NCBI RefSeq assembly: GCF_042650605.1
Contig: NZ_JBHSBN010000027.1
Coordinates: 17,199-41,198, forward strand
Reading direction: 5' to 3'
Origin: Micromonospora zhanjiangensis
GTDB taxonomy: Bacteria > Actinomycetota > Actinomycetes > Mycobacteriales > Micromonosporaceae
Length of the DNA stretch: 24,000 nt
In this document: positions 486-19,688 of the stretch, piece after piece
Numbering within the stretch: the first letter of the stretch is position 1
Layout: each line of letters begins with the position of its first letter
Made by a program: the position numbers and the translations under genes
Notes under the pieces: model-generated
What the model was told of the DNA's origin: nothing
Seen by the model: the letters and a program-made list of their open reading frames with translations, nothing else
Database searches by the model: none

Positions 486-749
486 GTGCCTCGCGTCGTA
501 GTCGACGTCATGCTCAAGCCGGAGATCCTTGATCCTCAGGGCCAGGCCGTCGCGAATGCGCTGCCGCGGATGGGCGTGAGCGACGTCTCCGCCGTCCGGA
601 TCGGGCGCCGGATCGAGATCGAGTTCACCGGCGAACCGGACCTGGAGCGGGCTCGGGAGATCGCCGACAAGCTGCTCGCCAACCCGGTCATCGAGGACTT
701 CACGGTCCGGCTGGTGAAGGCCGACGAACCGACGGAAGCGCATTCATGA
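486..749 (+). CDS. purS: Phosphoribosylformylglycinamidine synthase subunit PurS
   Basis: GTG at 486 is preceded by AGGAG (475-479). The product [26 protein letters not shown]... has canonical PurS sequence and length (87 aa). Its stop overlaps the purQ start (ATGA at 746-749). The ORF-track start at 363 is treated as an upstream extension. Confidence 0.9.
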
Positions 750-4353: not shown

Positions 4354-4357
4354 CGCC

Positions 4358-5113
4358 TTGACCGAGGACGTCTTCGCTCAGCCCGGAGCCGGCGTCCGGT
4401 TCGACTGGGGTCCGGCCGGTGCGGCGGAACTCGGCCGGGTCTGCGCCGCCCTGGTGGTCGTCGACGTCCTGTCCTTCACCACCGCGGTCGACGTCGCGGT
4501 GGGCCGGGGGATCCGGGTGCACCCGTTCCCGTGGGGCGCACAGGCCGCCGAGTACGCCCTGCGGGTCGGGGCCGTCGCCGCGGTCGGGCGGAACGCGGTG
4601 ACCGCCGACCATCCGTGGTCGCTGTCCCCGGCGGCGTTGTGGGCCGCGCCGGTCGTCCCCGACCTGGTGTTGCCGTCGCCGAACGGAGCCACGATCTGCG
4701 CCGCCGCCAGCGCCACCGGACTACCGGTGCTGGCGGCCGGCCTGCGCAACGCGGCCGCCGTTGGACGGTGGCTGCTCCGCCAGGGGTACGGCTCCGCCGA
4801 CACGCCGATCGGTGTCGTCGCATCCGGGGAACGGTGGAGCGACGGGACGCTGCGACCGTGCGTGGAGGATCAGCTCGGTGCGGCCCTGGTGCTCGACGCG
4901 CTGGCCGTCGCCACCGGCGGCCTGTCGGTGGAGGCGGCGGTGGCGCTCGCCGCCCTCGCCGGCGTGCCGAGCGTGGTGCCGGCGGTCCGCGGTGGTGTCT
5001 CGGGCCGGGAACTGGCCGACCGGGGTTTCGCCGCAGACGTCGAGATCGCGACCCAGGTGGGTGCCTCCCGTACCGTCCCCCTGCTGCGCAACGGCGTGTT
5101 CACCCCGGCCTGA
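4358..5113 (+). CDS. 2-phosphosulfolactate phosphatase (ComB) family protein
   Basis: TTG at 4358 lies 4 nt after the purL stop and is the only plausible in-frame start. The product LTEDVFAQPGAGVRFDWGP...ALVVVDVLSFTTAVDVAV...LPSPNG...ASGERWSDG resembles the ComB-family VVIDVLRxTT core. The family assignment is from memory of that family, not a search. Confidence 0.6.
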   Translation: MTEDVFAQPGAGVRFDWGPAGAAELGRVCAALVVVDVLSFTTAVDVAVGRGIRVHPFPWGAQAAEYALRVGAVAAVGRNAVTADHPWSLSPAALWAAPVVPDLVLPSPNGATICAAASATGLPVLAAGLRNAAAVGRWLLRQGYGSADTPIGVVASGERWSDGTLRPCVEDQLGAALVLDALAVATGGLSVEAAVALAALAGVPSVVPAVRGGVSGRELADRGFAADVEIATQVGASRTVPLLRNGVFTPA

Positions 5114-5141
5114 CCGGCCTCGCCGGCCGGGCGGAACGACA

Positions 5142-5177
5142 GCGCCCCCGTCCGTCCGGAGACGGGATCGGGGGCGC
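5142..5177. terminator. GC-rich stem-loop between convergent genes; likely a bidirectional terminator
   Basis: A 9-bp stem gcgcccccg/cgggggcgc (5142-5150 / 5169-5177) encloses an inner ccgtc/gacgg stem. It sits between the stop at 5113 (+) and the stop at 5198 (-). Confidence 0.5.
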
Positions 5178-5197
5178 CGCGGGCAGGTTCGTCGAGG

Positions 5198-7144
5198 TCA
5201 GTCGTCCAACCAGTCCAGGGACCGGCGGTTGTTGCCCCGGTTGGCCTGCTCCGGTCGTTCCTGGCGGGTGTGCCCGCCGCCGTCCCGGTCGCCGTAACCC
5301 TGCTGACCCTGGTCGTAGCCGCCCCGCTGGCCCTGGTCGTAACCCGACTGGCCGCCGTAGCCGTCACGCTGGTCGTAGCCCTCGTCGCGCTGACCGTAGC
5401 CGCCCTGCTGGCCGCCGTAGCCCTGCTGGTCGTAGCCGCCCGCGCCGTAACCGTCGCCGGCTTCGTAGCCGCCGCCCGCGTTCCGGTCGTCGTAGCCGCC
5501 GCGCTGGTCGTAGCCGCCCCGCTGACCCTGGTCGTAACCGGGCTGCTGTTGCCCGCCACCGTAGCCACCGCCGGACGGCTGGTAGGCGCCCGTCTCGTAC
5601 GGGTCGGCCGGCTGACCGTAGTCGTCGCCACCCGCGCCCCCGCCGCCGGTGTAGCGGCCGGTCGGCTCGTCGTACCGCTGGTCGTAGCCGCCCGTCCCGC
5701 GGGTCGGGTAACCAGGGGCACCGGCCGAGTTGTAGTCCCGGCCGCCGTAGCCCGCGCCGGAGCCGGGCCGGTTGTCGTATCCGCTGCCGGACGACGGCGC
5801 GTTGCCGCCGTAGCCGGCACCGGAGCCCGGCGCGTTGCCGCCGTAGCCGGCACCCGAGCCCGGCGCGTTGCCGTAGCCGTCGGCGCCGTATCCGGCGATC
5901 TGGGTGGGTGCGTCGGCGGACGGGCCGTAACCGTCGCCGGCCCAGTCCTGGCCCCCGGCGGCGCCGTAGCCCGGTCGCTGGTTGGGCAGCGGCGCGCCGT
6001 ACGGGTCGGGGAACTCGTCGACCAGGGGCTGGTTGTGCATCATCGTCGGGGCGTCGGCGAGGGCCGCGCCGCCGACCATCGTCGGATCGGGGCCCATGCC
6101 GGCCCGGTTGGCCACCCGGGTCGCGTCGCCGCCGTAACCCCCGCCGCCCGGCGGTACGGCGCCACGCGGGCCACCGGCGCCGGCTCCCGGGCCGTCCGGC
6201 TCGTCGTCGTTGTTCTCCTTGCGGCGCATCACCAGCAGCACGATGGCCCCGACACCCAGGGCGACGAGCAGACCGCCGACGATGATCAGCAGCCAGGAAC
6301 TGAATCCGCCCTCGTCCGACTTCTTGTCGCTCGCGGCCGGCTGGCCGGTGGCGTCGCCGGGCGTCTCGTTGGCGTCACCCGGCGTCTCGGGCGGCTCCTC
6401 GGTCGGCGGCTCCGACGCCGACGGGGTGGCGCTCGGGGTGGCCGCGGTGAGCTTCAGGGTGATCTTCTGGTTGTTCAGCACCTGCCCCGCGTTGGCGGAG
6501 ACGGTCTTCGTGTTGGTGACGTTGCCCTTCGCCGCGCCGATCCTGATCTGGCCCGGGGCGATCGGCTGGCCGCTCGAACCGGTGAACCGGTAGGCGCCGT
6601 TGCTGTTGGTCCTGGCCGGGTAGTTGTGCCCGGCCGAGTCCTGCAGGCCCACGTCCGCGTCGGCGACCGGGTCGCCGGTCGCGGCGTCGACGACCCGCCC
6701 GGAGACCTCCTTGACCGTCTGGGCCTCCGGCGGCGCCGCACCCTTGACGATCAGGGTGAAGTCGCCGGTGTCCGGCCCGCCGGGGTTGGCCTCGGCGCGC
6801 ACCGTCACGCGCGAGTTCGCGTCCGGCGCGTTCGCTGCCGCCTTGAGGGTCAGCAACTGGGTGGTGGTGCCCACGTTCGGCGGGACGGTCCCACAGCCGC
6901 TGGCGCAGCTCACCCCGTTCGGCAGGCCGGTGAGGCTGATCGTGACCGGCCCGTCGCCGGCACTGCCGTTGATCCGCACCGTCACCGTCGCGTCGCTGCC
7001 GGCCTGGAGCGTCACCGAGCCGGGCGAGACGTCGATGCGGGGCTGGGCCGATGCGGCCACGGCCGGCAGAGCGAGCAGGGCACTGGTCGCCAGCGCCACG
7101 ACCACACCGGCCCGCTGCAGCCAGGCATGTCGGTGTGTTGTCAC
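5198..7144 (-). CDS. Single-pass membrane protein: signal peptide, Ig-like and carboxypeptidase-regulatory-like ectodomains, P/T/E linker, TM helix, and a long G/Y/D/Q/R-rich cytoplasmic tail
   Basis: GTG at 7144 has GGAAGG 8 nt upstream. The N-terminus VTTHRHAWLQRAGVVVALATSALLALPAVAASA looks like a signal peptide. VSGRVVDAATGDPVADADVGLQDSAGHNYPARTNSNGAYRF matches the CarboxypepD_reg pattern. The TM helix FSSWLLIIVGGLLVALGVGAIVLLVM is followed by RRK. GC3 is strong on this strand. The ORF-track start at 7228 is rejected because it adds a non-signal leader. Confidence 0.8.
   Translation of the reverse strand: MTTHRHAWLQRAGVVVALATSALLALPAVAASAQPRIDVSPGSVTLQAGSDATVTVRINGSAGDGPVTISLTGLPNGVSCASGCGTVPPNVGTTTQLLTLKAAANAPDANSRVTVRAEANPGGPDTGDFTLIVKGAAPPEAQTVKEVSGRVVDAATGDPVADADVGLQDSAGHNYPARTNSNGAYRFTGSSGQPIAPGQIRIGAAKGNVTNTKTVSANAGQVLNNQKITLKLTAATPSATPSASEPPTEEPPETPGDANETPGDATGQPAASDKKSDEGGFSSWLLIIVGGLLVALGVGAIVLLVMRRKENNDDEPDGPGAGAGGPRGAVPPGGGGYGGDATRVANRAGMGPDPTMVGGAALADAPTMMHNQPLVDEFPDPYGAPLPNQRPGYGAAGGQDWAGDGYGPSADAPTQIAGYGADGYGNAPGSGAGYGGNAPGSGAGYGGNAPSSGSGYDNRPGSGAGYGGRDYNSAGAPGYPTRGTGGYDQRYDEPTGRYTGGGGAGGDDYGQPADPYETGAYQPSGGGYGGGQQQPGYDQGQRGGYDQRGGYDDRNAGGGYEAGDGYGAGGYDQQGYGGQQGGYGQRDEGYDQRDGYGGQSGYDQGQRGGYDQGQQGYGDRDGGGHTRQERPEQANRGNNRRSLDWLDD
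5796..5880 (-). repeat. 33-bp in-frame tandem repeat (2 full copies plus a degenerate third) encoding GNAPGSGAGYG units
   Basis: Units at 5796-5828 and 5829-5861 differ at one base. A third copy starts at 5862 with a 3-nt deletion. Confidence 0.85.
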
Positions 7145-7305
7145 GGCCACCGCCTTCCGGGTCTGACCTGTCCGGTCGATACGTGGAGACCGGATCGAGT
7201 TGCCACCGTACGAATACACCGTCGGCAACTATGCCTTGTCTGGCCGGATCTGCGCGACCCAGGGGCAGCGGCCGTCGTCAACACGACGGGTCGTATCGTC
7301 CCGTC

Positions 7306-7686
7306 GTGTCCTCTCCGTACAGTAAGTCCGCGGCGGTGGCCGCGGTGATCGCGGCGCTCGACGACGGCCGGACTCCCCAGGCCGACGCGTTGCGGGCTGC
7401 GGTCCGGGCCTTGTTGACCGAGTTCGCCCGGCGGGTACCCGGCCGAACGGTGGAGGTCCGCGTCCCACCTTATGGCGCAGTTCAATGCGTGGCCGGTCCC
7501 CGGCACACCCGGGGCAACCCGCCGAACGTGGTCCAGCTGGATCCGGTGACCTGGGTCGAGCTGGTCACCGGGCGGCTGAGCTGGGCCGACGCGCTGGCTG
7601 CCGGTCGGGTGTCGGCCAGTGGGAACCGGGCCGACCTGTCCGCCTACCTGCCGCTGCCGGAGCTGGACCGGATCGACGACCGGTGA
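7306..7686 (+). CDS. Sterol-carrier-like (bacterial SCP orthologue) family protein
   Basis: GTG at 7306. The 126-aa product reads ...AVRALLTEFARRVPGRTVEVRVPPYGAVQCVAGPRHTRGNPPNVVQLDPVTWVELVTGRLSWADALAAGRVSASGNRADLSAYLPL. This matches my recollection of the small SCP-like proteins found next to purF in actinobacteria. Not verified by search. Confidence 0.55.
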   Translation: MSSPYSKSAAVAAVIAALDDGRTPQADALRAAVRALLTEFARRVPGRTVEVRVPPYGAVQCVAGPRHTRGNPPNVVQLDPVTWVELVTGRLSWADALAAGRVSASGNRADLSAYLPLPELDRIDDR

Positions 7687-7816
7687 CGTGGCGGCCGTCG
7701 GCTCACACCAGGTGCCGCCCGGTGTTCGCGTACACTGACGGCGACGGTGGTCCCGGTGTCGAGCACTACCCATCCCGCGACTCGACGGCCGGGTTGATCA
7801 GCAGAGGGAGCGTCAG

Positions 7817-9388
7817 GTGCCCCGAGGCGACGGCCGCTTGAACCACGACCTTGATCCCGAACGGCCCGGCCCGCAGGACGCGTGTGGCGTGTTCGGTGTC
7901 TGGGCGCCCGGCGAGGATGTGGCCAAGCTCACCTATTTCGGTCTCTACGCTCTGCAGCACCGGGGGCAGGAGGCGGCCGGCATCGCCGTCAGCGACGGTA
8001 CGGGCGTGGTGGTCTTCAAGGACCTCGGCCTGGTGGCGCAGGTTTTCGACGAGCCGACCCTGGCCAGCCTGCGCGGGCATCTCGCCATCGGGCACGCCCG
8101 CTACTCCACCACCGGTGCATCGACGTGGGAAAACGCCCAACCGACCATCCGGGCCACCAATGCCGGCACCACGATCGCGTTGGCGCACAACGGAAATTTG
8201 GTCAACACGGCCGAACTCGCCCAGGAGGTCACCGAGCGGGACGTCGAGTCGGACGGTTCCACCTCGGACACCGCGCTGGTGACGGCGCTGCTGGCCAGCC
8301 GGCCGGACCTGTCGGTCGAGGCGGCGGCGGTCGAGGTGCTGCCGATGCTGCGCGGGGCGTTCAGCTTCGTCTTCATGGATGAGCACACCCTCTACGCGGC
8401 GCGCGATCCGCACGGCGTACGGCCGCTGGTGCTGGGCCGGTTGGAGCGCGGCTGGGTGGTGGCGAGCGAGACCGCCGCGTTGGACATCGTCGGCGCCAGC
8501 GTGGTCCGCGAGGTGGAGCCGGGCGAGTTGCTGGCGATCGACGAGAACGGCCTGCGGTCCGTCCGGTTCGCCGCTCCGGAGCCGAAGGGCTGCCTCTTCG
8601 AGTACGTGTACATCGCCCGGCCGGACACCACCATCGCCGGCCGGAACATCCACGCCGCCCGGGTGGCCATCGGCCGGCAACTGGCCAAGGAGCACCCGGT
8701 GGAGGCCGACCTGGTGATCCCGGTGCCGGAGTCCGGTACGCCCGCCGCGATCGGTTACGCCGAGGCGTCGGGCATCACCTACGGCGCCGGCCTGCTGAAG
8801 AACGGGTACGTCGGGCGCACCTTCATCCAGCCGTCCCAGACGCTGCGTCAACTCGGCATCCGGCTCAAGTTGAACCCGCTGCGGGAAAACGTGCGGGGCA
8901 AGCGGCTGGTCGTGGTGGACGACTCGATCGTGCGGGGCAACACCCAGCGGGCGATCGTCCGGATGCTGCGGGAGGCCGGGGCGTTGGAGGTGCACGTACG
9001 CATCTCCTCGCCGCCGGTCAGCTGGCCGTGTTTCTACGGCATCGACTTCGCCACCCGTGCCGAGTTGCTGGCCCACGGGTTGGACAACGAGGGCGTCCGG
9101 CGCTCCATCGGCGCCGACACGCTGGGCTACGTCTCGCTCGGCGGGCTGATCGCGGCCACCGAACAACCGAAGACCCGGTTGTGTCGGGCGTGCTTCGACG
9201 GGGAGTATCCGATCGAGCTTCCGGCTGGCAACCTGATCGGCAAGCACGTGCTCGAAGGGGTGGGTCGCCGGGTCACCGACCCGGCCGCCCGATCCGGAGA
9301 GGGCGGCGCCGGGACCGACCGGTCCGGCACCGCGACCCGGCCGCTCGTCGCCACTCCCGGCGGCGTCGAGGCACCGCACCGTCAATAG
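7817..9388 (+). CDS. purF: Amidophosphoribosyltransferase
   Basis: GTG at 7817 follows GAGGGAG. A propeptide precedes CGVFGVWAPGEDVAKLTYFGLYALQHRGQEAAGIA (Ntn-amidotransferase). A PRTase motif (RLVVVDDSIVRGNT) and the Cys ligands of a [4Fe-4S] PurF are present. Confidence 0.95.
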   Translation: MPRGDGRLNHDLDPERPGPQDACGVFGVWAPGEDVAKLTYFGLYALQHRGQEAAGIAVSDGTGVVVFKDLGLVAQVFDEPTLASLRGHLAIGHARYSTTGASTWENAQPTIRATNAGTTIALAHNGNLVNTAELAQEVTERDVESDGSTSDTALVTALLASRPDLSVEAAAVEVLPMLRGAFSFVFMDEHTLYAARDPHGVRPLVLGRLERGWVVASETAALDIVGASVVREVEPGELLAIDENGLRSVRFAAPEPKGCLFEYVYIARPDTTIAGRNIHAARVAIGRQLAKEHPVEADLVIPVPESGTPAAIGYAEASGITYGAGLLKNGYVGRTFIQPSQTLRQLGIRLKLNPLRENVRGKRLVVVDDSIVRGNTQRAIVRMLREAGALEVHVRISSPPVSWPCFYGIDFATRAELLAHGLDNEGVRRSIGADTLGYVSLGGLIAATEQPKTRLCRACFDGEYPIELPAGNLIGKHVLEGVGRRVTDPAARSGEGGAGTDRSGTATRPLVATPGGVEAPHRQ

Positions 9389-9482
9389 CACCGACCGCCC
9401 GGCCAGCAGTGGCAGCCCCGAGTGTCGGGCCACCCCCGACCGCTACCCGACCGGCCGTCCGCGAGAACCAAAGGGGAGAACC

Positions 9483-10649
9483 GTGACGCACGTGACCGAG
9501 CGCAGTGGCGCAGGAGGCGGCCCGACCGGTGGTCAGGGTTCCGGAGGCGGCGACCGCCGGCCCTGGACCGCGGGAACGGGTCGAACCGGCCGTAAGCGCA
9601 GCGTGTCGTACGCGGACGCGGGCGTCTCGATCGACGCCGGCGACCGGGCCGTGGAGCTGCTCAAGTCGAAGGTGCGCGGCACCCGACGACCGGAGGTGCT
9701 GGGCGACCTCGGCGGCTTCGCCGGGTTGTTCCGGCTGGACACCAAGAAGTACCGCAATCCGATCCTGGCCTCGTCCACCGACGGGGTGGGCACCAAGCTG
9801 GTGATCGCCCAACAGCTCAACATCCACGACACGGTCGGCATCGACCTGGTGGCGATGGTCGTGGACGACCTGGTGGCGTGCGGTGCCGAGCCGCTCTTCC
9901 TGCTGGACTACATCGCCTGCGGCGAGGTGGTGCCGGACAAGGTCGCCGAGATCGGCGCGGGCATCGCCGACGGTTGCCGGTACGCCGGCTGTGCGCTGCT
10001 GGGCGGCGAGACGGCCGAGCACCCGGGTGTGCTGCGTCCCGACGAGTACGACGTGTCGGCCACCGGCGTCGGTGTGGTCGAGGAGAGCGAGCTGCTCAGC
10101 CCGGAGCGGGTCGAGGTCGGTGACGTGGTCATCGCGATGCGCTCGTCCGGGCTGCACTCCAACGGTTACTCCCTGGTCCGGCACGTGCTGCTCGGTGCGG
10201 GACGGATGCGGCTGGACACGGTGATCGAGGATTTCGGCGACCAGCGCACCCTCGGTGAGGAACTGCTGACCCCGACCGAGATCTACGCCCAGCACTGCCT
10301 CAAGCTGATCGCCGAGGCCGAGGTCCGGGCGCTCGCCCACGTCACCGGCGGCGGGATCCCGGGCAACCTGGTGCGGGTCCTGCCCGAGAACGTCGACGCG
10401 GTGGTCAACCGGGCGACGTGGAAGCCGCAGCCGATTTTCGACCTGATCCAGGCCAAGGGTCGGATCGAGGACCACGAGATGGAGTCGACCTTCAACATGG
10501 GGGTCGGCATGTTCGCCGTCGTGTCGGCCGAGGACGCCGACCGGGCGTTGGCGACTCTCACCGGTCGCGGCGTGGACGCGTGGCAGGCCGGCGAGATCAT
10601 CGAGGGCACCGGAACGGTCCAGATGATCGGTCAGCACACCCGGGGTTGA
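9483..10649 (+). CDS. purM: Phosphoribosylformylglycinamidine cyclo-ligase (AIR synthase)
   Basis: GTG at 9483 has a strong SD (AAGGGGAG, 5-nt spacer). The PurM core reads SYADAGVSIDAGDRAVELLK...DGVGTKL...GGETAEHPG. An alternative in-frame GTG at 9603 would give the canonical MSYADAG N-terminus but lacks an SD. The start is therefore uncertain while the product is secure. Confidence 0.93.
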   Translation: MTHVTERSGAGGGPTGGQGSGGGDRRPWTAGTGRTGRKRSVSYADAGVSIDAGDRAVELLKSKVRGTRRPEVLGDLGGFAGLFRLDTKKYRNPILASSTDGVGTKLVIAQQLNIHDTVGIDLVAMVVDDLVACGAEPLFLLDYIACGEVVPDKVAEIGAGIADGCRYAGCALLGGETAEHPGVLRPDEYDVSATGVGVVEESELLSPERVEVGDVVIAMRSSGLHSNGYSLVRHVLLGAGRMRLDTVIEDFGDQRTLGEELLTPTEIYAQHCLKLIAEAEVRALAHVTGGGIPGNLVRVLPENVDAVVNRATWKPQPIFDLIQAKGRIEDHEMESTFNMGVGMFAVVSAEDADRALATLTGRGVDAWQAGEIIEGTGTVQMIGQHTRG

Positions 10650-10745
10650 TCGCAATCTGTTGATCATTTTCCTACCCCTTCGGACTTCACCCGGATAGCC
10701 GTCGCCACCTAGCCTGGAGAGAACCGAGGCACGGGGGAAGGTCCG

Positions 10746-11915
10746 ATGGCGGTTGTCCGTTCGGCACGTTCCGCGGCGCAGGTGCGTCCGGAGGCGTACG
10801 AGCCTGCCGGGATGCGGGGCATCGCCGACGTGCCGTCGTACGTCGTGATGCAGCCGACCACCCTGTGCAACCTCGACTGCGCGTACTGTTACCTGCCGCT
10901 GCGGGCGGTCGACCGGCGGATGCCGGTCGAGGTCGCCGAGGCGGTGGCCGGCCCGGTGAACCGGTGGGCCGGTGCCGGCCGGTTCTCGGTGGTCTGGCAC
11001 GGTGGCGAGCCGTTGGCGGCGGGGCGGGAGCATCTGGCCGCGCTGGTCGCCCCGTTCGACGACGCGGTCGAGCACCACGTGCAGACCAACGCGACCCTGA
11101 TCGACGACGACTGGTGCGACTTCTTCACCGAGCACCGGATCCGGGTGAGCGTCAGCGTCGACGGGCCCCGGGAGCGCAACGACGCCCGGGTGACCCGGGG
11201 TGGCCACCCGTCGTACGACCGGGTCCTGCGGGGGGTGGAGGCGCTGCGGCGGCACGGGATCGGCTTCTCCGCGCTCTGCGTGGTGTCCCGGCCGGAGCCC
11301 GGCCTGGCGGCCGAGCTCTATTCCTACTTTCTCGACCTTGGCTGCGACGTGCTCGGGCTGAACATCGAGGAGATGGAGGGGGTGAACACCCGGGGGAACC
11401 GCCATCCGGCGCCGGCCGTGACCGCGTTCTGGTCGGAGTTGACCGCGGCCTGGCGCAGCGACCCGCGGATCCATCTCCGGGAAATCGAGTGGAGCCTGCG
11501 GTACGCCGCCGCCGTGCTGGACGGCACCGAGGACGACCTGCTGCCGCGTCACCTGGATCCGATCCCGACCGTCGGTCACGACGGTTCGGTGGTCCTGCTC
11601 TCACCCGAGCTGGCCGGTTTCTCCGACCCGCGCTACGGCGACTTCAGCAGCGGCAACGTGCTGACCGACGGGCTGGCGCAGATCCTGGCCCGTCCCGGTG
11701 GCACGCCCTGGGTGGCCGAGTTCCTGGCCGGGGTGCAGGCGTGCCGGGTGAAGTGTCCGTATTTCAGCTTCTGCGGAGGTGGCCACGCGGCCAACCGGTA
11801 CTTCGAGCACGGGCGGTTCGACGGTACGGAGACCGACCACTGCCGGAACAGCAAGATCCGCCTATTGGAGGGAGTGTTGGCGCATGCCCGAGACCACCAG
11901 CCGACAGTGGCCTGA
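10746..11915 (+). CDS. Radical SAM peptide-maturase-like enzyme (SPASM/twitch-type C-terminal Cys cluster; looks GrrM/OscB-type or anSME-like)
   Basis: ATG at 10746 follows GGGGGAAGG. The CX3CX2C motif (TTLCNLDCAYCYLP) lies only about 40 aa from the N-terminus, and the GGE-type motif VVWHGGEPL is present. The C-terminal sequence is VQACRVKCPYFSFCGGGHAANRYFEHGRFDGTETDHC. GC3 bias is strong. The subfamily assignment is from memory, not a search. Confidence 0.85.
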   Translation: MAVVRSARSAAQVRPEAYEPAGMRGIADVPSYVVMQPTTLCNLDCAYCYLPLRAVDRRMPVEVAEAVAGPVNRWAGAGRFSVVWHGGEPLAAGREHLAALVAPFDDAVEHHVQTNATLIDDDWCDFFTEHRIRVSVSVDGPRERNDARVTRGGHPSYDRVLRGVEALRRHGIGFSALCVVSRPEPGLAAELYSYFLDLGCDVLGLNIEEMEGVNTRGNRHPAPAVTAFWSELTAAWRSDPRIHLREIEWSLRYAAAVLDGTEDDLLPRHLDPIPTVGHDGSVVLLSPELAGFSDPRYGDFSSGNVLTDGLAQILARPGGTPWVAEFLAGVQACRVKCPYFSFCGGGHAANRYFEHGRFDGTETDHCRNSKIRLLEGVLAHARDHQPTVA

Positions 11916-12129
11916 CCGCCCGTACGGGATCGACGTCGAGGAGTCCACCGGCAATCACGTGGCCGCGCGCGTGCGCGGGGCCAGGACCGGATTCGAGGCG
12001 CTGCTGCGCGAGGCCGACGACGCGCGCCGGCATCGGGCCGAGGCGACCGGTGACGGCACGGCGGTGTGTGCCTGGAACCACTTCGAGAACATCCCGACGT
12101 TCTACAACTGGAACAACCGGCCGCGCTGA
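11884..12129 (+). CDS. 81-aa candidate RiPP precursor peptide (leader plus aromatic/Asn-rich C-terminal core)
   Basis: ATG at 11884 has GGAGGGAG 9 nt upstream and overlaps the last 32 nt of the rSAM gene in another frame. The codons are C/G-ending (aac, ttc, tac, cac), as expected for a real gene in this genome. The product is MPETTSRQWPDRPYGIDVEESTGNHVAARVRGARTGFEALLREADDARRHRAEATGDGTAVCAWNHFENIPTFYNWNNRPR. Confidence 0.6.
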   Translation: MPETTSRQWPDRPYGIDVEESTGNHVAARVRGARTGFEALLREADDARRHRAEATGDGTAVCAWNHFENIPTFYNWNNRPR

Positions 12130-12163
12130 CCGGATCGCCCGCAGCATGAGGCGTGGAGTGAGC

Positions 12164-12219
12164 TCAGGGACCTGCCGTGCCAGGTGGAATCGGACGATCC
12201 ACCCCGGTCAGGTCCCTGA
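12164..12219 (+). terminator. Nested stem-loop 35 nt after the precursor stop; probable operon terminator or 3' stabiliser
   Basis: The outer 11-bp stem is tcagggacctg/caggtccctga (12164-12174 / 12209-12219). The inner 6-bp stem is ggtgga/tccacc (12183-12188 / 12198-12203). Confidence 0.45.
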
Positions 12220-12278
12220 CCTCGCTTCGGGGATGTAAGACGGTTCGACGGTGCGCGTCGCACCACTCGGACATGCGT

Positions 12279-12304
12279 GAGCACGCGGGTGTTACCGCGT
12301 GCTC
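12279..12304 (-). terminator. Perfect 10-bp hairpin just downstream of the DUF3073 gene stop
   Basis: The stem is gagcacgcgg-gtgtta-ccgcgtgctc. It lies 15 nt beyond the stop at 12319-12321 on the minus strand. There is no clear U-tract, so it is an I-shaped terminator of the kind common in actinomycetes. Confidence 0.5.
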
Positions 12305-12318
12305 AAATATGCCTGAGG

Positions 12319-12534
12319 TCAGCGGGCCGGAGGAGCCCAGTGTCCTGGGCCGTCCTCATCATGATCCTCGTCATCGTCGTCGACATACTCTTTGTAGTCG
12401 TCGTCGAAGTCGTGGTCCGACTTGCCGCTGCCGCCGAGTTCTCGCTGCAAGGCGGCGAGGTCGGTGTTCGGGGAGTGGTACTTCAACTCCCGGGCCACCT
12501 TTGTCTGCTTGGCCTTAGCACGGCCGCGCCCCAT
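12319..12534 (-). CDS. DUF3073 family small protein (basic N-terminus, acidic C-terminus)
   Basis: ATG at 12534 follows GAGGGGG. The product is MGRGRAKAKQTKVARELKYHSPNTDLAALQRELGG...DDDYKEYVDDDDEDHDED, the typical actinobacterial DUF3073 sequence. The ORF-track start at 12597 was rejected. Confidence 0.85.
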   Translation of the reverse strand: MGRGRAKAKQTKVARELKYHSPNTDLAALQRELGGSGKSDHDFDDDYKEYVDDDDEDHDEDGPGHWAPPAR

Positions 12535-12694
12535 GGCTCGACCCCCTCGCACAGAATTCGGGGCAGCCCAAAGGCGGGCCCCGATGACGTTAGGCATCTC
12601 TCGTGGCTCTTACGGTACATGGGGAGGCCCCGGTTCGGCACCTCGGGTTCCGGTCGACCGCGCGTCCGCGTTTCGCGGCGCCCGGTCGTAACAG

Positions 12695-12723
12695 ATTGTA
12701 GCCGGTAACGAACTGTTCGCCAA
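12695..12723 (-). promoter_or_regulatory. Candidate HrdB-type promoter for the DUF3073 gene (TTGGCG-17-TACAAT)
   Basis: On the minus strand, TACAAT is at 12700-12695 and TTGGCG at 12723-12718, with a 17-nt spacer. Both lie in a locally AT-richer stretch. This would give a leader of about 150 nt. The call rests on a motif match only. Confidence 0.3.
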
Positions 12724-12779
12724 TCAACCGTTACCTGTCCGCGCCGGTCCGGGCACCCGCCGGTGCCGGTGATCGACGC

Positions 12780-12834
12780 GATCAAGGACTCTTCCGTCGT
12801 AAATGACCCAAACCACCGCGAAGAGCCCTTGATC
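12780..12834 (-). terminator. Stem-loop 15 nt downstream of the vdh stop
   Basis: gatcaaggActcttc pairs with gaagagCccttgatc: 14 bp plus one mismatch, with a 25-nt loop. Confidence 0.4.
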
Positions 12835-12848
12835 AGCGTCGGTGCGGC

Positions 12849-13928
12849 TCAGCTCAGCCGGATCGTCCGGAGCCGCCCCACCTCGGCCATCCGCCGCTCG
12901 GCCAGCCGGTCGGCGGCGACCGCCGGCGGCACACCCTCGGCGTCGGCCAGCCGGAGGATCTGCCGGGTGGTGTCGAAGATCCGGGTGGCCCGCAGCTTGG
13001 CCCGCTCGAAGTTGAAGCCCTCGATCTCGTCCGCGACCTGGATCACGCCGCCGGCGTTGACCACGTAGTCCGGCGCGTAGAGCACGCCCCGCTCGGCCAG
13101 CAGCTTCTCGATGCCCGGGTGGGCCAGCTGGTTGTTGGCCGCCCCGGCGACGATCTTGGCGCGCAGGGCCGGGACCGTGTCGTCGTTGAGGGCGCCGCCG
13201 AGCGCACACGGCGCGTAGACGTCGATGTCGGCGGCGACCAGCGCGGTGGCGTCCTGCACGAGGTCGACCTCGGGGTGGTTGCTCCGGACCCAGTCCACCG
13301 CCCGCTCGTTGACGTCGGTGGCCACCACCGCGGCGCCGTCGGCGAGCAGGTGGGCGGTCAGGTGCTTGCCGACCTTGCCCAGACCGGCGACGCCGACCCG
13401 GCGGCCGGACAGGGTGGGGGAGCCCCAGAGGTGCTCGGCCGCCGCCCGCATGCCCTGGAACACGCCCCAGGCGGTCAGGATCGACGAGTCACCGGCCCCG
13501 CCGTGCTCCACGCTGCGGCCGGTGACGTACCGGGTCTCGCGGGCGATCACGTCCATGTCCTGCACGTACGTGCCCACGTCGCAGGCGGTGTAGTACCGGC
13601 CGCCCAGCGACTGCACGAACCGGCCGTACGCGCGCAGCAGCGCCTCGCTCTTGATCTGCTCCGGGTCGCCCCAGATGACCGCCTTGCCGCCGCCGAGGTC
13701 CAGATCGGCGAGCGCGTTCTTGTAGGCCATCCCCCGGGACAGGTCGAGGACGTCGTGCAGCGCGTCCTCTTCGGTCGCGTACGGGTAGAACCGGGTGCCG
13801 CCGAGTGCCGGACCGAGCGCGGTCGAGTAGATGCCGATGATCGCCTTCAGGCCGGAGTGCTTGTCCTGGCAGAAGACGACCTGCTCATGCCCGGTGGCGG
13901 GTGCGTCGGTGTTGGCGAAAACGCCCAT
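12849..13928 (-). CDS. vdh: Valine/leucine dehydrogenase (Glu/Leu/Phe/Val dehydrogenase family)
   Basis: ATG at 13928 follows AGGAG. The product MGVFANTD...[25 protein letters not shown]...DLGGGKAVI...[12 protein letters not shown] carries the catalytic Lys-Gly-rich motif and a Rossmann GxGxxG. The ORF-track extension to 15029 was rejected. Confidence 0.9.
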
Positions 13929-14108
13929 GGCTGCTCCTGTTTTGGATGCGCCCTTGTGGGGTGCGGACCTGCGTCTGGCCGGCGGGGTCCTGCCGGTGCT
14001 GGTGAGCCTAGTCTCGATCGTTCGCGACCGGCTGCCACGCACCTGTCGATCCCAGATGATCGGACCCGCTGCTGGGAGGTGGCATCCGTTTCGTGGGAGG
14101 ATCGCGCC

Positions 14109-14948
14109 GTGCCGTCGCTTTTCGCTTCCTACCTGCGGGTGTACGAGCCCCTGGCCGCCTTCGACCGGGACCGTCAGGTCTACTGGCGGCAGTACGTCAC
14201 CGAAGGGCGGCCGATCGCCCCCTCCGAAGGTCCCGGCCGGCAACGTACGTCGGTGATCGAGGCCCTCGGCGCCGGCTGGACCCGGCTGCCCGACCTGCCC
14301 GAGGAGGCGTACGTCCTGGAGGCGGACGAGACGCTGCTGGTCTGCCCGTGGAACCTGCGGATCCGGGTGGCCGAGGCGGCGCTCAGTGCCCGGGACGGGG
14401 TGCCCTCGGTGCTGGCCGACGCGTTCGTGCCGCCGGTGCTGGCCGGACAGGCCAAGGCGGTGGTGGAGGACTGGCGCAGCGGCGCCCGGGTGCTCGAACA
14501 CGGCGTGCCCAGGCTGCACGAGCAGGTCTCCACCTGGGGCGTACCGCTGCGGTGGTTCGTCTTCGTGGCCGCCGAGGAGCGGGAGCTGACCACCCGACCG
14601 GACCGGCGGGTGCTGCGCTACCGCACCGAGATCTCCAAGGCCCGGCGGCGGGCCTCCCGCGGCCTGGCCGTGCTGCGCAAGTCGGTGGGCGACGCGCCGA
14701 TCACCGAGGCGGTGGAGGAGGGCGCGCGGTGGCTGGAGGAGTTCCACCCGCGCTCGGTGCTGGAGCTGGACTACGGCGGTCTGGTCGACCTGTTGTCGGA
14801 CGATGCGCTGGCCGAGGACGACTCCCCGGAGCTGGTCGCGACCGGGCTGGCCGGGCTTTCCCGGGGCGACGCCGAGGCCGCCACCGAGGCCTACGAGAAG
14901 CTGGTCGCTCGCTGGCGGGCGGTCCAGTTGCTGGAGCGGTGCAATTAG
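14109..14948 (+). CDS. Conserved actinobacterial protein of unknown function (between vdh and bldC)
   Basis: GTG at 14109 has GGGAGGA 9 nt upstream. GC3 is strong. The 279-aa acidic product reads [26 protein letters not shown]...LLERCN. I did not recognise any family. Confidence 0.7.
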
Positions 14949-14959
14949 GGCAGACCTGC

Positions 14960-14982
14960 CGTTCCAGCCTCTGGGAACGTTT
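14960..14982 (+). terminator. Small hairpin followed by TTT after the 14109-14948 gene
   Basis: cgttccag-cct-ctgggaacg (8 bp with a 1-nt bulge) is followed by ttt. It starts 12 nt after the TAG stop. Confidence 0.35.
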
Positions 14983-15213
14983 CCAAGGCGAGGCCTGCTC
15001 GTAGCCACCGGGTCACCAAACGCGATCATGAGTCCGAATAAGGCCGGTTGTGGCGTACAAAATAGCCATAAATCGGTCTTAGTTCATCCGTCTATCCAGG
15101 GACGTTCGGCCGTTCGGCCCATGTCGGACATCGGGGACTAGCCGGACCATGGGAGACGCGTCGGCCGGCGGGACCCCGGCCGATGTCTATAGGTACCTGT
15201 GGAGGAGTGACCG

Positions 15214-15423
15214 ATGGCATCGCGTACGCACGAACCTGAGCCGCTACTCACACCGGCCGAGGTGGCGTCGATGTTCCGCGTCGACCCGAAGACCGTGACC
15301 CGGTGGGCGAAGGCGGGCAAGCTGAGCGCCATTCGCACGCTGGGCGGCCACCGCCGCTATCGCGAGTCGGAGGTTCGCGCTCTGCTGCAGGGGCAGATTC
15401 CCCAGCAGCGTCAAGGCGACTGA
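15214..15423 (+). CDS. bldC: BldC, small MerR/excisionase-like developmental DNA-binding regulator
   Basis: ATG follows GGAGGAG. The product MASRTHEPEPLLTPAEVASMFRVDPKTVTRWAKAGKLSAIRTLGGHRRYRESEVRALLQG is nearly identical to the Streptomyces BldC core as I remember it. Confidence 0.92.
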   Translation: MASRTHEPEPLLTPAEVASMFRVDPKTVTRWAKAGKLSAIRTLGGHRRYRESEVRALLQGQIPQQRQGD

Positions 15424-15442
15424 GCACCGCAGCAATACGTTA

Positions 15443-15490
15443 GATCAGGGGCGGAGCAACCCGGACGACCGGGCGGCTCCGCCCCTGATC
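15443..15490. terminator. Strong bidirectional terminator hairpin between bldC and the convergent PPOX gene
   Basis: A perfect 15-bp stem gatcaggggcggagc/gctccgcccctgatc encloses an inner cccgg-acga-ccggg hairpin. Confidence 0.65.
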
Positions 15491-15518
15491 CGTGCCCGCC
15501 GGTCCGTCTCGGCGCGGG

Positions 15519-15902
15519 TCAGTCGGTCAGCTCGATCCGGATCCCCACCGTGCCGGCGGATCCGCGCCGCAGCCGGCTGCCCAGCAGGGTCAGCCGGCCG
15601 ATCAGGCCGTACTTGCGGCGCAGCAGCGCGCGGGCCCGCTCGGTGGTCTCCGGATCGCAGATCGCCGCCCGACCCTCCACCGGCGGGTCGCCGAGCGGCC
15701 GGCCCCGCACGTCGCAGGCGGCCACGCTCACCCGGCCGTCCCGGCGGATCCGCTTGACCTTGCCGGCGTCCGCGGCGGACCAGGCCATCAGTGCCGCACC
15801 CTCGCGTACCACCCAGACCGGCGTGGCCACCGCCCGACCGTCCCGGCGGTACGTGGTGAGGAGAAGGTACTTCCCGGCGCCGAGTCGATCGAGGTCGGAC
15901 AT
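15519..15902 (-). CDS. PPOX-class (pyridoxamine 5'-phosphate oxidase fold) probable F420-dependent protein
   Basis: ATG at 15902. The product MSDLDRLGAGKYLLLTTYRRDGRAVATPVWVVREG...GKVKRIRRDGRVSVAACD fits the TTxRxDGxPxxxPVW pattern of this family. The longer ORF-track frame to 16661 was rejected. Confidence 0.75.
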   Translation of the reverse strand: MSDLDRLGAGKYLLLTTYRRDGRAVATPVWVVREGAALMAWSAADAGKVKRIRRDGRVSVAACDVRGRPLGDPPVEGRAAICDPETTERARALLRRKYGLIGRLTLLGSRLRRGSAGTVGIRIELTD

Positions 15903-15959
15903 GCGGACCAGGGTACGGCCGGTGCGCGCCCGGTGGCACCGCCGGATAGCGTCTGCCGC

Positions 15960-16736
15960 ATGCTGGGAGAGCCGCGGATCGGCGACGTGTTCGGTGAACT
16001 GCTGCGGGACGCGTACGCCGTCGAGACCGGGATCGGGCCGCGCCCGTTGGTCGGTGGCCGGCTGCCCCGACCGGTCATCGAGATCATCGAACGGGACGAC
16101 GGACTGATCAACGGGGCGCCGGCCGCGCACTACCTCGCCGGCCCGGACGACTGGCAGCCGTACGACCATCGGGCCGTGGACCGGGTGACCGGCAGCGTCC
16201 TCGACATCGGTGTCGGCGGTGGCCGGATCGCGCTGCACCTGCAGGCGCGCGGGGTGCCGGTGACCGGCCTGGACGTGTCGCCGGGCGCGCTCGCGGTGTG
16301 CCGTCGGCGCGGCGTACGCGATCTGGTGCTCGGCACCGTCGACGAGCACGCGACCGGCGACCGGCGGTACGACACCCTGTTGTTGCTCGGCAACAACCTG
16401 GGACTGATCGAGGGGCGGCACCGGGCCGCCGGGTTCCTCGGCGCGCTGGCGGCGCTGGCCCGGCCGGGCGCCCGGATCATCGCGCACGGCACCGACCCGT
16501 ACGGCACGACCGATCCGGTGCACGTCGGCTACCACGAGTCGAACCGGCGCCGGGGCCGGCTCGGCGGCCAGTTGCGGTTGCGGCTGCGCTACCGGGAACT
16601 GGGCACCGACTGGTTCGACTACCTGGTCTGCACGCCGGAGGAACTCGCCGAGCTGGTGCACGGCACCCCGTGGCGGCTGACCGACGTGGACACCGCCGAC
16701 GCCCCGTACTACCTGGCGACCCTGCGGCTGGCCTGA
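15960..16736 (+). CDS. Class I SAM-dependent methyltransferase
   Basis: ATG at 15960. Motif I is VLDIGVGGGRIALHL, followed by an acidic post-I residue (GLDVS). The substrate is unknown. Confidence 0.75.
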   Translation: MLGEPRIGDVFGELLRDAYAVETGIGPRPLVGGRLPRPVIEIIERDDGLINGAPAAHYLAGPDDWQPYDHRAVDRVTGSVLDIGVGGGRIALHLQARGVPVTGLDVSPGALAVCRRRGVRDLVLGTVDEHATGDRRYDTLLLLGNNLGLIEGRHRAAGFLGALAALARPGARIIAHGTDPYGTTDPVHVGYHESNRRRGRLGGQLRLRLRYRELGTDWFDYLVCTPEELAELVHGTPWRLTDVDTADAPYYLATLRLA

Positions 16737-16739
16737 CGG

Positions 16740-16768
16740 GTCCGGCTGACCCGACCGGTCAGCCGGAC
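16740..16768. terminator. 12-bp perfect hairpin spanning the gap between convergent genes and overlapping the TetR stop
   Basis: gtccggctgacc-cgacc-ggtcagccggac lies between the methyltransferase stop (16734-16736) and the TetR stop (16759-16761). Confidence 0.55.
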
Positions 16769-17400
16769 GGGAACGGCGGTTCGGCGGGAATGCCGGCGGT
16801 CAGCGCGGCGAACGCGCGCCGGCGCAGCGCGGCCAGCGAGCCGGTGCCGTCGCCGGCCGACCAGGCCTGCAACGCCACGTCCCAGGAGGAGACGGCGGCC
16901 GTGGCGACCAGCAACGGGTACGGGTCGGTGGCGGGCAGCCCGGTGCGTTCGGCGACGAAATCCTGGAAGACCTGGCGCAGCTCGTTGTTGAGCAACAGGT
17001 ACATGCCCGTCAGCGACGGCTGGCGGTCCATCAGCCGGAGCCGGGTGATGATCTGCACCTGCTCGTCCTGGTCGAAGTCGAGCGCGTCCAGCACCGCGCC
17101 GACGGCCAACAACGGTGACTCGTCGGGCGGACTGGCGGCCAACGCGGCGCGCAGGTGGTTGATCCGCTGGTGCGCCACGTCACCGAAGAGCACGTGCTGC
17201 TTGGACGAGAAGTACCGGAAGAAGGTGCGGACGGCGACGTCGGCGGTCTCCGCGATCTCCTCGACGGTGGTGTGTTCGTACCCCTTCTCCGCGAACAGGC
17301 GCAGCGCCGCCCGCTCCAGCGCCGCCCGGGTCTCCTGCTTCTTGCGTTCCCGGCGGCTGGTGGGCAACTCGACGGAGACGCCGATCTCGGACGTCGTCAC
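16759..17400 (-). CDS. TetR/AcrR family transcriptional regulator
   Basis: GTG at 17400. The N-terminal HTH is RRERKKQETRAALERAALRLFAEKGYEHTTVEEIAETADVAVRTFFRYFSSK. Confidence 0.9.
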   Translation of the reverse strand: MTTSEIGVSVELPTSRRERKKQETRAALERAALRLFAEKGYEHTTVEEIAETADVAVRTFFRYFSSKQHVLFGDVAHQRINHLRAALAASPPDESPLLAVGAVLDALDFDQDEQVQIITRLRLMDRQPSLTGMYLLLNNELRQVFQDFVAERTGLPATDPYPLLVATAAVSSWDVALQAWSAGDGTGSLAALRRRAFAALTAGIPAEPPFPSG

Positions 17401-17468
17401 CTGGTCATCGTCTCACGGGGCGACGCCCGGCCGTACCGGTCGGGCACCCGATGTGACGGTGCGCGCAC

Positions 17469-17494
17469 GCCGGCCGACCGCCCGGTCGGCCGGC
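17469..17494. promoter_or_regulatory. 26-bp palindrome (12-bp perfect arms), either an operator upstream of tetR or the terminator of the upstream small gene
   Basis: gccggccgaccg-cc-cggtcggccggc lies 70-95 bp upstream of the TetR start and 35 bp downstream of the stop at 17529. Confidence 0.4.
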
Positions 17495-17528
17495 TGCGCG
17501 ACCGACCGGGCACGCGACCGTACGGGGT

Positions 17529-17801
17529 TCAGGCGGTCGGCGGCAGCGGAGCCGGCGGTAGTCCGCCGTCCCCGTCGACCACCTCGTCCGGAGTGCCGTC
17601 CTCGTCGATGTCCACCATCGTGATGTCGACCTTGCCGTCGCCGTCGGTGTCGAACTGGAACAGGTCGGCCTTGCCGTCCCCGTCGGTGTCGGTCACCCAC
17701 ACGTCGGTCTTGCCGTCGTTGTTGGTGTCCATCCGGATCAGGTCGACGCGCTCGTCGCCACGGGTCTCGACGGTCTCCTGGGACTCCGGTGCCTCGGTCA
17801 T
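17529..17801 (-). CDS. Small acidic protein with four DxDxDG (EF-hand/FG-GAP-like) calcium-binding-type loops
   Basis: ATG at 17801. The product is MTEAPESQETVETRGDERVDLIRMDTNNDGKTDVWVTDTDGDGKADLFQFDTDGDGKVDITMVDIDEDGTPDEVVDGDGG... It has no signal peptide. GC3 bias is good. Confidence 0.6.
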   Translation of the reverse strand: MTEAPESQETVETRGDERVDLIRMDTNNDGKTDVWVTDTDGDGKADLFQFDTDGDGKVDITMVDIDEDGTPDEVVDGDGGLPPAPLPPTA

Positions 17802-17865
17802 CGGCTGGCCTTTCTCTGCGGGGGGTCTGATCGTTGGCGGAAGGTTTGGCAGGCGTTGCTTACTA

Positions 17866-17885
17866 CCCGGTGCGGCCGCACCGGG
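17866..17885. promoter_or_regulatory. Perfect 20-bp palindrome in the divergent promoter region; candidate operator
   Basis: cccggtgcggccgcaccggg equals its own reverse complement. It lies between the starts at 17801 (-) and 17957 (+). Confidence 0.4.
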
Positions 17886-17956
17886 AACACGCGTCCCGAC
17901 GGCCGACCCGGGACCCATGCAAACAGGTGCGCGGGCCGCTGCATAGGGTCGGCGGC

Positions 17957-18841
17957 ATGAACGAGCGAAGCGGAATGCCGATGGTGGGCGAGCGGTTCGT
18001 CGTCGTCGGCGCCGGCACCATGGGCCTCGGCATCGCGTACGTGGCGGCCGGTGCCGGGTACGGGGTCGACCTGGTCGAGGTCGACGTGGCCCGCGCCGAA
18101 TCGGCCGCGGTGACGCTCGACGGGCTGTGGGACAAGGCCGTCCGGCGCGGGAAGCTGACGCCGGGCGAGGCGGCGGAGAGTCGTACCCGGGTGGTGGTCC
18201 GGACCGACCTGGCCGCGGTGGCCGACGGCCCGGACGTGGTCGTCGAGGCCGTGCCCGAGCGTGCGGACCTGAAGCGGACCGTGCTGGCCGCCGCCGAGGC
18301 GCTGCGGCCCGCCCTGCTGGCCAGCAACACCTCCAGCATCCCCATCGCCGAGCTGGCGACCGGCCTGGCCCGACCGGAACGGTTCGTGGGGTTGCACTTC
18401 TTCAACCCGGTCTGGGCGATGGCGCTGATCGAGGTGGTGGTCGGGCCGGCCACCACCGAGGAGACCACCGGGGCTGCGGTCGCCCTCGCCGGCCGGCTCG
18501 GCAAGGATCCGATCGTGGTCCGCGACCTGCCCGGCTTCGCCACCTCGCGGCTGGGGGTGACGCTCGGGCTGGAGGCGATCCGGATGGTCGCCGACGGGGT
18601 GGCCAGCCCGGCCGACATCGACAAGGCGATGGTGCTCGGCTACCGGCACCCGGTCGGCCCGTTGGAGTTGACCGACCTGGTCGGGCTGGACGTCCGGCTG
18701 GACATCGCGCGGACCCTGCAACGCGCCTACGGAGACCGGTTCGCCCCGCCGCCGCTGCTGGAGTCGATGGTCGAACAGGGCCGGCTGGGCAAGAAGTCGG
18801 GCCGGGGCTTCTACCACTGGGAAGGCGGCGTACGGCGGTGA
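17957..18841 (+). CDS. 3-hydroxyacyl-CoA / 3-hydroxybutyryl-CoA dehydrogenase
   Basis: The Rossmann motif VVVGAGTMGLGIA, the SNTSSIPI signature and the C-terminal GKKSGRGFY are present. The start is ambiguous among ATG 17957, 17975 and 17981. Confidence 0.88.
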   Translation: MNERSGMPMVGERFVVVGAGTMGLGIAYVAAGAGYGVDLVEVDVARAESAAVTLDGLWDKAVRRGKLTPGEAAESRTRVVVRTDLAAVADGPDVVVEAVPERADLKRTVLAAAEALRPALLASNTSSIPIAELATGLARPERFVGLHFFNPVWAMALIEVVVGPATTEETTGAAVALAGRLGKDPIVVRDLPGFATSRLGVTLGLEAIRMVADGVASPADIDKAMVLGYRHPVGPLELTDLVGLDVRLDIARTLQRAYGDRFAPPPLLESMVEQGRLGKKSGRGFYHWEGGVRR

Positions 18842-19575: not shown

Positions 19576-19632
19576 GCACTGCCGGACGGTGAGCACTGCC
19601 GGACGGTGAGCCGGTCCGGGCGGTGAGCCGGG
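19565..19632 (+). repeat. 17-bp tandem repeat (ccggacggtgagcactg), 2 perfect plus 2 degenerate copies, starting inside the last codons of the crotonase gene
   Basis: Copies at 19565-19581 and 19582-19598 are identical. The core cggtgagc recurs at a 17-nt period twice more, out to about 19630. Each copy carries the TGA. Confidence 0.85.
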
Positions 19633-19688
19633 ACGACGCCGGCCGGGCACCCCGCGGATGCCCGGCCGGTACGGAAGCCCGTCGTCGG

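Follow-up and report, generated by a model that had tools for sequence, protein, structure and literature searches.

Triceptides are defined by links from an aromatic ring to a Cβ carbon on aromatic-X-X motifs (PMC11499958), and among the enzymes of this kind OscB is reported to join C7 of Trp to Cβ of Asn or Asp, and C4 of Phe to Cβ of Asn (PMC11002830). Enzymes of the ChlB family, described as fusing a radical S-adenosylmethionine (SAM) domain to an α-ketoglutarate (αKG)-HExxH domain, act on Tyr-Asp-Arg motifs (PMC11851443, its reference 24; PMC11499958). Here we describe a 24,000-nt stretch of DNA from Micromonospora zhanjiangensis (termed here the window), in which a cassette of two genes, amcB and amcA, lies between purM and a gene encoding a DUF3073 protein. 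This cassette very probably encodes a triceptide of the AmcA/AmcB family, subtype 3a, in which AmcB, a radical SAM enzyme, would install aromatic-to-Cβ cyclophanes on the ribosomally made precursor AmcA. The family is already catalogued (NF041718, NF041721, NF041722, NF041723 and PF28164), and the window pair is a member that shows no family-level difference from it, with the same order of enzyme then precursor as in the AmcAB loci examined. What is unusual is that the whole family Micromonosporaceae carries the cassette at a housekeeping site, and that the 22-residue end of the peptide is almost invariant.

An AmcB enzyme and its precursor

The enzyme scores 520.4 bits (E = 2.3e-156) against the NCBIfam equivalog model for AmcB (NF041718; curated cut-off 425 bits), covering model positions 1-361 of 362, and is a 100% match to RefSeq protein WP_377551472.1, which already bears the name AmcB; Pfam recognizes a radical SAM core in it (PF04055, 65 bits). 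The small protein encoded downstream scores 108.2 bits (E = 2.3e-31) against the subtype 3a precursor model NF041722 (cut-off 65 bits) and is identical to the 81-residue RefSeq protein WP_377551340.1, already named AmcA; Pfam family PF28164 (AmcA_3a) is precomputed on a protein identical to it. A preliminary description of this DNA had recognized a pair of radical SAM enzyme and precursor of the triceptide type, i.e., a locus for a peptide made by the ribosome and modified post-translationally (RiPP), and both proteins bear this out by passing equivalog cut-offs; the open reading frames (ORFs), cysteine motifs, ribosome-binding site and 32-nt gene overlap likewise lie where it had placed them. 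Its expectation that the novelty would reside in the precursor fails, however, as AmcA is already modelled (NF041722, PF28164) and named in the public annotation of the genome. With genes, family and chemistry class all present in NCBIfam, Pfam and RefSeq, the discovery value of the locus is small, and its modest value is comparative.

The start of amcB is ambiguous, because RefSeq calls a shorter form of 367 residues from the ATG at 10812, whereas in relatives an in-frame start is retained 6-12 codons 5' of this Met, and residues 1-21 of AmcB are disordered in the AlphaFold model. In relatives, the upstream ATG follows a purine-rich block.

The N-terminal part of the AmcA leader varies and is followed by a conserved helix-like block, RVRxARxGLxxLLxEAxxARRxRAE (alignment of 30 sequences). 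The 22-residue core matches the family consensus and is invariant across the same 30 aligned homologues. When 27 loci were compared at the DNA level, the sole amino-acid change in the core was Y74F in Catellatospora, with four codons in use at each of R79 and P80 and several at A60 and V61, so the core is otherwise invariant despite synonymous variation and selection therefore acts on the peptide sequence, not the DNA. Four aromatic motifs occur in the core: WNH, FEN, FYN and WNN. Because the segment FENIPTFYN aligns with FDNRPTWDN, the unit repeated in the subtype 1 cores of Streptomyces-type relatives (the window core reads WNHFENIPTFYNWNNRPR), FEN, FYN and WNN (F67-E68-N69, F73-Y74-N75 and W76-N77-N78) are indicated as cross-link motifs, with WNH (W64-N65-H66) as a possible fourth. 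The cassette thus combines aromatic-X-X core motifs with a radical SAM enzyme of the predicted cyclophane-forming type, the arrangement by which triceptides are recognized. Deep-branching metagenome-assembled genomes (MAGs) carry a subtype 3b precursor, WRPFEDAFPTFYQFTNRPR. A small ORF with aromatic-X-Asn motifs lies 3' of AmcB homologues in Micromonosporaceae, Streptomyces, Kitasatospora, Nocardiopsis, Lentzea and Saccharopolyspora, and such an ORF is conserved beside the enzyme in nearly every locus, a check that the preliminary description had set for its claim and that the claim passes.

AmcB carries the radical SAM motif CX3CX2C (CNLDCAYC, at C41/C45/C48; invariant in our alignment A2), WHGGEPL at residues 84-90 and a C-terminal cysteine group, C333-X3-C337-X5-C343-X22-C366, whose four cysteines (CX3CX5CX22C) are enough for one auxiliary cluster. 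The canonical SPASM pattern (CX9-15GX4C...CX2CX5CX3C...C, with seven cysteines and two auxiliary clusters) is not present, just these four cysteines being found, and no SPASM match was returned by Pfam at E <= 0.1. Compared with the anaerobic sulfatase-maturating enzyme (anSME), no cysteine of AmcB aligns with the ligands of auxiliary cluster I (Aux-I), Aux-II-type cysteines are retained, and His347 takes the fourth position of the CX2CX5CX3C block, equivalent to anSME C330. We dropped loss of the Aux-I cysteines as a means of telling AmcB from the GrrM/OscB family, because GrrM-like relatives mostly share the pattern and the missing cysteines are thus a trait of a wider clade, not of AmcB alone. 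No separate leader-recognition domain (RiPP recognition element) was found at the N-terminus, where Pfam gives PF04055 alone and the motif begins at residue 41.

The AlphaFold (AF2) model of AmcB has a predicted local distance difference test score of 88 and a predicted template-modelling (TM) score of 0.86, and its best structural match is the triceptide maturase ChlB with its precursor (9GMC/9GM3, TM-score 0.72-0.76), followed by anSME; a profile search of PDB sequences ranked the same pair at the top, anSME ahead of ChlB. ChlB (PDB 9GM3, 9GMC), a cyclophane synthase of the radical SAM class, binds the precursor leader directly and has only ~20% identity to AmcB. The enzyme anSMEcpe (PDB 4K36-4K39) has its overall fold and an Aux-II-type CX(2-3)CX5C motif in common with AmcB, but AmcB lacks the Aux-I cysteines.

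Predicted chemistry and its alternatives

The steps that follow are modelled on the triceptide maturases XncB, OscB, MscB and ChlB, to which AmcB is homologous. AmcB would bind the AmcA leader at its conserved helical stretch and cleave SAM to give a 5'-deoxyadenosyl radical, the cysteines of the CX3CX2C motif being the site of the SAM-cleaving [4Fe-4S] cluster. Within an aromatic-X-Asn motif, the radical would then remove a hydrogen from Cβ of the third residue, and the resulting carbon radical would join the aromatic ring of the first residue, closing a three-residue cyclophane at a cost of 2 Da per ring. Most likely, three or four such cyclophanes are installed: rings are predicted at the FEN, FYN and WNN motifs and possibly at WNH, which would leave the peptide 6 to 8 Da lighter.

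Several points weigh against this reading. The literature that we found contains no experiment on subtype 3a (a study by Phan and Morinaka, 2022, probably covers the actinobacterial group, judging by its title), so the type, number and positions of the cross-links are extrapolated. The invariant Cys62 and His66 of the core hint at extra or different chemistry. No protease or exporter accounts for release of the mature product, and no dedicated gene for leader removal, export or a biological role lies nearby. Finally, the putative promoter of the cassette, described below, is a conserved motif alone.

An alternative is that AmcB makes another radical cross-link, either a thioether from Cys62, as in sactipeptides and ranthipeptides, or an ether or C-N bond, as in darobactin and dynobactin. 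In line with this, subtype 3a shows no variation at Cys62 and His66, the DynA, DarW and PapB models give weak sub-threshold matches, and titles cited in PMC11851443 refer to related enzymes able to switch between ether and C-C bond formation. We nevertheless consider it unlikely, since aromatic-X-Asn/Asp units are retained in subtypes 3b and 1, from which the Cys is absent, and the nearest characterised relatives, OscB (PMC11002830) and ChlB (by structure match), form C-C cyclophanes. Moreover, all models other than those for Amc proteins fall far under their cut-offs, among them FxsB (96.7 bits; cut-off 370), XyeB (59.9; 450), YhhB (105; 445), DarE (64.6; 650) and DynA (113.9; 450).

Closest to AmcB among separately named families is GrrM/OscB, which has in common with it the C-terminal CX3CX5C...C pattern and the minimal enzyme-plus-peptide layout, and the residues targeted by OscB (Trp/Phe to Cβ of Asn/Asp) are of the same motif type as those predicted for AmcB. 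The enzyme might therefore be a member of GrrM/OscB proper, acting on a Gly-rich-repeat substrate: the corresponding model, TIGR04261, is the second-best match (241.2 bits), and cyanobacterial GrrM-type enzymes are 32-38% identical to AmcB with the same C-terminal cysteine pattern. This is highly unlikely, however, because the TIGR04261 score is below its cut-off of 310 bits whereas the AmcB model was passed, and because the GrrM/OscB precursor is a Gly-rich repeat, while AmcA is not and matches AmcA models only. As a control, a cyanobacterial relative (L061) scored 537 bits with the GrrM/OscB model (pass) and 318 bits with the AmcB model (fail), and actinobacterial relatives behaved in the opposite way, so that the two models separate both families cleanly. 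The GrrM-type relatives that we fetched are mostly cyanobacterial, whereas the window system is actinobacterial. The preliminary description had suggested that the enzyme may be of a catalogued family and looks GrrM/OscB-like; the first part is right, with AmcB as the family, and GrrM/OscB itself is the nearest sister.

A family-wide locus beside purM

A scan of species-representative genomes with the AmcB alignment yielded 80 loci, 30 of them from Micromonosporaceae (Micromonospora, Salinispora, Plantactinospora, Actinoplanes, Paractinoplanes, Catellatospora, Dactylosporangium, Virgisporangium and MAGs). All 30 have the order purF-purM-amcB-(amcA)-DUF3073(-)-vdh(-)-bldC, and amcA could be read in 29, the exception being a contig that ends within amcB (L035). 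Ten further places, retrieved via an identical BldC protein and hence independent of amcAB, each have Radical_SAM and AmcA_3a matches between purM and the DUF3073 gene, such that amcB occupies the purM site in 40 of 40 sampled Micromonosporaceae loci. This fixed position sets subtype 3a apart from subtype 1; homologues of AmcB in Streptomyces, Kitasatospora, Lentzea, Saccharopolyspora and Nocardiopsis (40-56% identity) lie at other genome sites. Within the family, AmcB identity is correlated with PurM identity (Pearson r = 0.94, n = 28), and GC content at third codon positions (GC3) is 0.90-0.91 for amcA, amcB, purF and purM.

As outgroups we used the published locus numbering of two species: in Streptomyces coelicolor, purM is SCO4087 (PMC7674942) and the DUF3073 gene is SCO4088 (PMC4255298), and in Mycobacterium tuberculosis Rv0810c lies between purM and Rv0811c (bioRxiv 10.64898/2026.08.18.745482). 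Because purM sits directly beside the DUF3073 gene in both, the cassette is an ancient insertion, now fixed throughout Micromonosporaceae; it entered the purM/DUF3073 junction in an ancestor of the family and has been inherited vertically since. An insertion at this junction had been proposed in the preliminary description and stands against both outgroups; the novelty it attached to the genomic context does not, the insertion being fixed across Micromonosporaceae and not singular to the strain. A recent horizontal or mobile insertion, specific to the strain or genus, could be read from the absence of the cassette at this junction in Streptomyces and Mycobacterium (sources as above) and from the AT-richer gap 5' of amcB. 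It is extremely unlikely in view of the occupation of the same site in at least eight named genera and in MAGs, a divergence that tracks purM, and GC and GC3 values identical to those of the neighbouring genes; neither an integrase nor repeats were noted, though no repeat search was made.

Genes identified in the window include purQ, purL, purF, purM, DUF3073, vdh, bldC, a methyltransferase gene and 3HCDH. As the preliminary description had reported for proteases and transporters, no protease, transporter or sulfatase occurs among the ten large ORFs searched with Pfam (746-20244) or the other identified genes; one of the ten, at 18814-20244 (-), has no family match. That AmcB is an anSME and the small ORF irrelevant has a vanishingly small likelihood, for although anSME ranks first in the sequence-profile search of solved structures and second by structural similarity, the anSME model TIGR03942 yields 111.5 bits against a cut-off of 349, the Aux-I cysteines are absent, no sulfatase is among the identified window genes and the downstream peptide is conserved.

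Some loci depart from the common arrangement. In Catellatospora (L019), purFM is inverted and 3 kb off, and amcBA still adjoins DUF3073; on one metagenome contig a dienelactone-hydrolase gene (L081:2939-3730) stands between amcA and DUF3073. Apparent frameshifts break amcB in a MAG (L035, at 7689) and in Saccharopolyspora spinosa (L051, at 7794), which are possibly pseudogenes or assembly errors.

Expression signals, meaning and neighbouring features

The 96-bp gap between purM and amcB (10650-10745) is AT-richer than its surroundings, with 59% GC vs 70-71% in the flanking genes, as had been noted in the preliminary description, and contains no significant structure or terminator (z = -0.25). 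Alignment of the gap revealed that 20 of 31 Micromonosporaceae loci contain TTCACC-N18-TAGCCT in exact form; the CCTAG(C/G)CTG box of this promoter-like block is also found in Actinoplanes, Paractinoplanes and Dactylosporangium. We infer that the element serves the cassette as its own promoter, of the actinobacterial TAnnnT type (Table 1), at which transcription most likely starts; because no terminator intervenes before amcB, read-through from purFM is also possible. A scan of the + strand for E. coli-type promoters and terminators gave no match, missing the conserved block and detecting no T-tract terminator. With a conserved promoter-like element of its own upstream, the cassette can be called constitutively placed, as it had been, only by speculation. 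TGATCA-type palindromes extend from the purM stop codon (window 10647-10668, TGATCAC-N6-GTGATC; equivalents in L001-L017 and L026), and the 10-bp palindrome CCTGATCAGG lies immediately 5' of the -35-like box in most Micromonospora, the window holding a degenerate third copy; these palindromes could serve as an operator site or form a small hairpin.

Table 1. Features of the amcBA cassette and its borders (window coordinates)
Feature	Position	Strand	Basis
purM, left flank	9483-10649	+	TIGR00878, 437 bits
Candidate amcBA promoter, TTCACC (10686-10691)-N18-TAGCCT (10710-10715)	10686-10715	+	Phylogenetic footprint
Ribosome-binding site GGGGGAAGG, long amcB form	10733-10741	+	Read from sequence
amcB, predicted cyclophane-forming radical SAM peptide maturase, 389 residues	10746-11915	+	NF041718 and RefSeq match
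amcA ribosome-binding site GGAGGGAG, within amcB codons L-E-G-V	11867-11874	+	Comparison with relatives
amcA, 81 residues	11884-12129	+	NF041722; same protein called by RefSeq
amcA leader, residues 1-59	11884-12060	+	Alignment A1, 30 sequences
amcA core AVCAWNHFENIPTFYNWNNRPR, residues 60-81, and stop	12061-12129	+	NF041722, alignment, codon comparison
Nested GC-rich hairpin 3' of amcA	12153-12230	+	-52.1 kcal/mol, z = -5.3, 0/200 shuffles as stable
Second hairpin GAGCACGCGG-N6-CCGCGTGCTC, right after DUF3073 stop	12279-12304	-	Context, outside cassette
DUF3073 gene, right flank, convergent	12319-12597	-	PF11273, 84.7 bits over residues 23-79

The ribosome-binding site of amcA is situated 9 nt before its ATG and is invariant in the window and in 25 of 25 relatives tested. 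The amcA ORF overlaps the last 32 nt of amcB (stop codon 11913-11915), and each of the 25 relatives measured likewise keeps an overlap, the lengths seen in them and the window being 32, 20 or 17 nt. The conserved internal site and the gene overlap fit translational coupling, with amcA presumably translated from within the last amcB codons. Beyond amcA, the nested hairpin seen in the preliminary description was recovered on folding, and 26 of 27 family loci show strong structure between amcA and DUF3073; the nested hairpin is probably a tail-less terminator in the convergent intergenic region, and the second one is probably the terminator of the convergent DUF3073 gene. An Rfam scan of the window returned no match. 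The near-invariant core, the conserved internal ribosome-binding site with its overlap, and the promoter-like block are what our analysis adds to the existing annotation.

Subtype-3a AmcA may be, as a tentative and somewhat doubtful suggestion, a family-wide, physiologically important peptide (cofactor-like, metal-binding or a developmental signal) and not a variable secondary-metabolite antibiotic. We raise this because the 22-residue core is frozen across Micromonosporaceae; because the cassette has its own conserved promoter candidate, is located inside a purine/DUF3073/vdh/bldC housekeeping block and has no protease, exporter or immunity gene; and because the pentapeptide-repeat partner of Streptomyces-type loci has been lost. 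The main interest of the locus is this possibly physiological, family-fixed triceptide, and with a near-invariant product, a conserved promoter candidate and no accessory genes, subtype 3a is a clean system for asking what triceptides are for.

The pentapeptide-repeat gene that follows the cassette in subtype 1 loci outside the purM site, and that the window 3a cassette lacks, was found beside amcA in L029-L031, L033, L037, L038, L040, L041, L043, L046-L049 and L051 (PF13599/PF00805), mostly directly 3' of it (e.g., L030:8340-9014), with L049 and L051 having it on the other strand; among 13 further loci, the encoded proteins show 31-74% identity. DNA gyrase is protected by pentapeptide-repeat proteins, McbG, AlbG and Qnr being examples, and the gene may be a clue to what subtype-1 products act on. 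A second AmcB paralogue, ~40% identical to the window enzyme, occurs at another locus in Micromonospora sp. CPCC 205558 (L046) and SL1-18 (L047), where its neighbours are a pentapeptide-repeat gene and a precursor of subtype 1, FDNRPAWENKGKFDSRPGWDNWNKKK. Two Streptomyces loci (L036 and L050) encode enzymes above the AmcB cut-off (461 and 479 bits), and the tails of their downstream small ORFs (L036:8105-8249 and L050:8081-8240) are hydrophobic (…ASIFGWASLWRRF and …LDIFCHFLGIC); no NCBIfam model matches the L036 peptide, and both ORFs may represent an uncatalogued AmcA subtype. The downstream ORFs of L032 and L034 are likewise atypical. We also considered the 'mic' triceptide cluster (PNAS, 2026), but its YSK/HAS/FTK motifs, ADP-ribosyltransferase and αKG enzyme mark it as a separate system.

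On the right flank, the DUF3073 gene probably starts at M22 (12534; 71 residues) rather than at 12597 (the 92-residue ORF), because its orthologues are called at 70-72 residues, and a sigma-70-like site, TTGGCG-17-TACAAT, lies 5' of the gene (12695-12723, -). On the left, the purine genes form two blocks, purQ-purL and purF-purM (746-4353 and 7817-10649), with ~3.4 kb of unrelated genes between them, namely those for a 2-phosphosulfolactate-phosphatase-like protein, a Gly/Tyr-rich protein and one with an SCP_3 domain. The Gly/Tyr-rich protein (676 residues; 5198-7228, -), encoded between purF and the genes on the purL side, begins with a signal or transmembrane segment, followed by a CarboxypepD_reg domain and a second transmembrane segment, and its C-terminal half is a very long, low-complexity region rich in Gly, Tyr, Gln and Asp (…GGYDQRGGYDD…).

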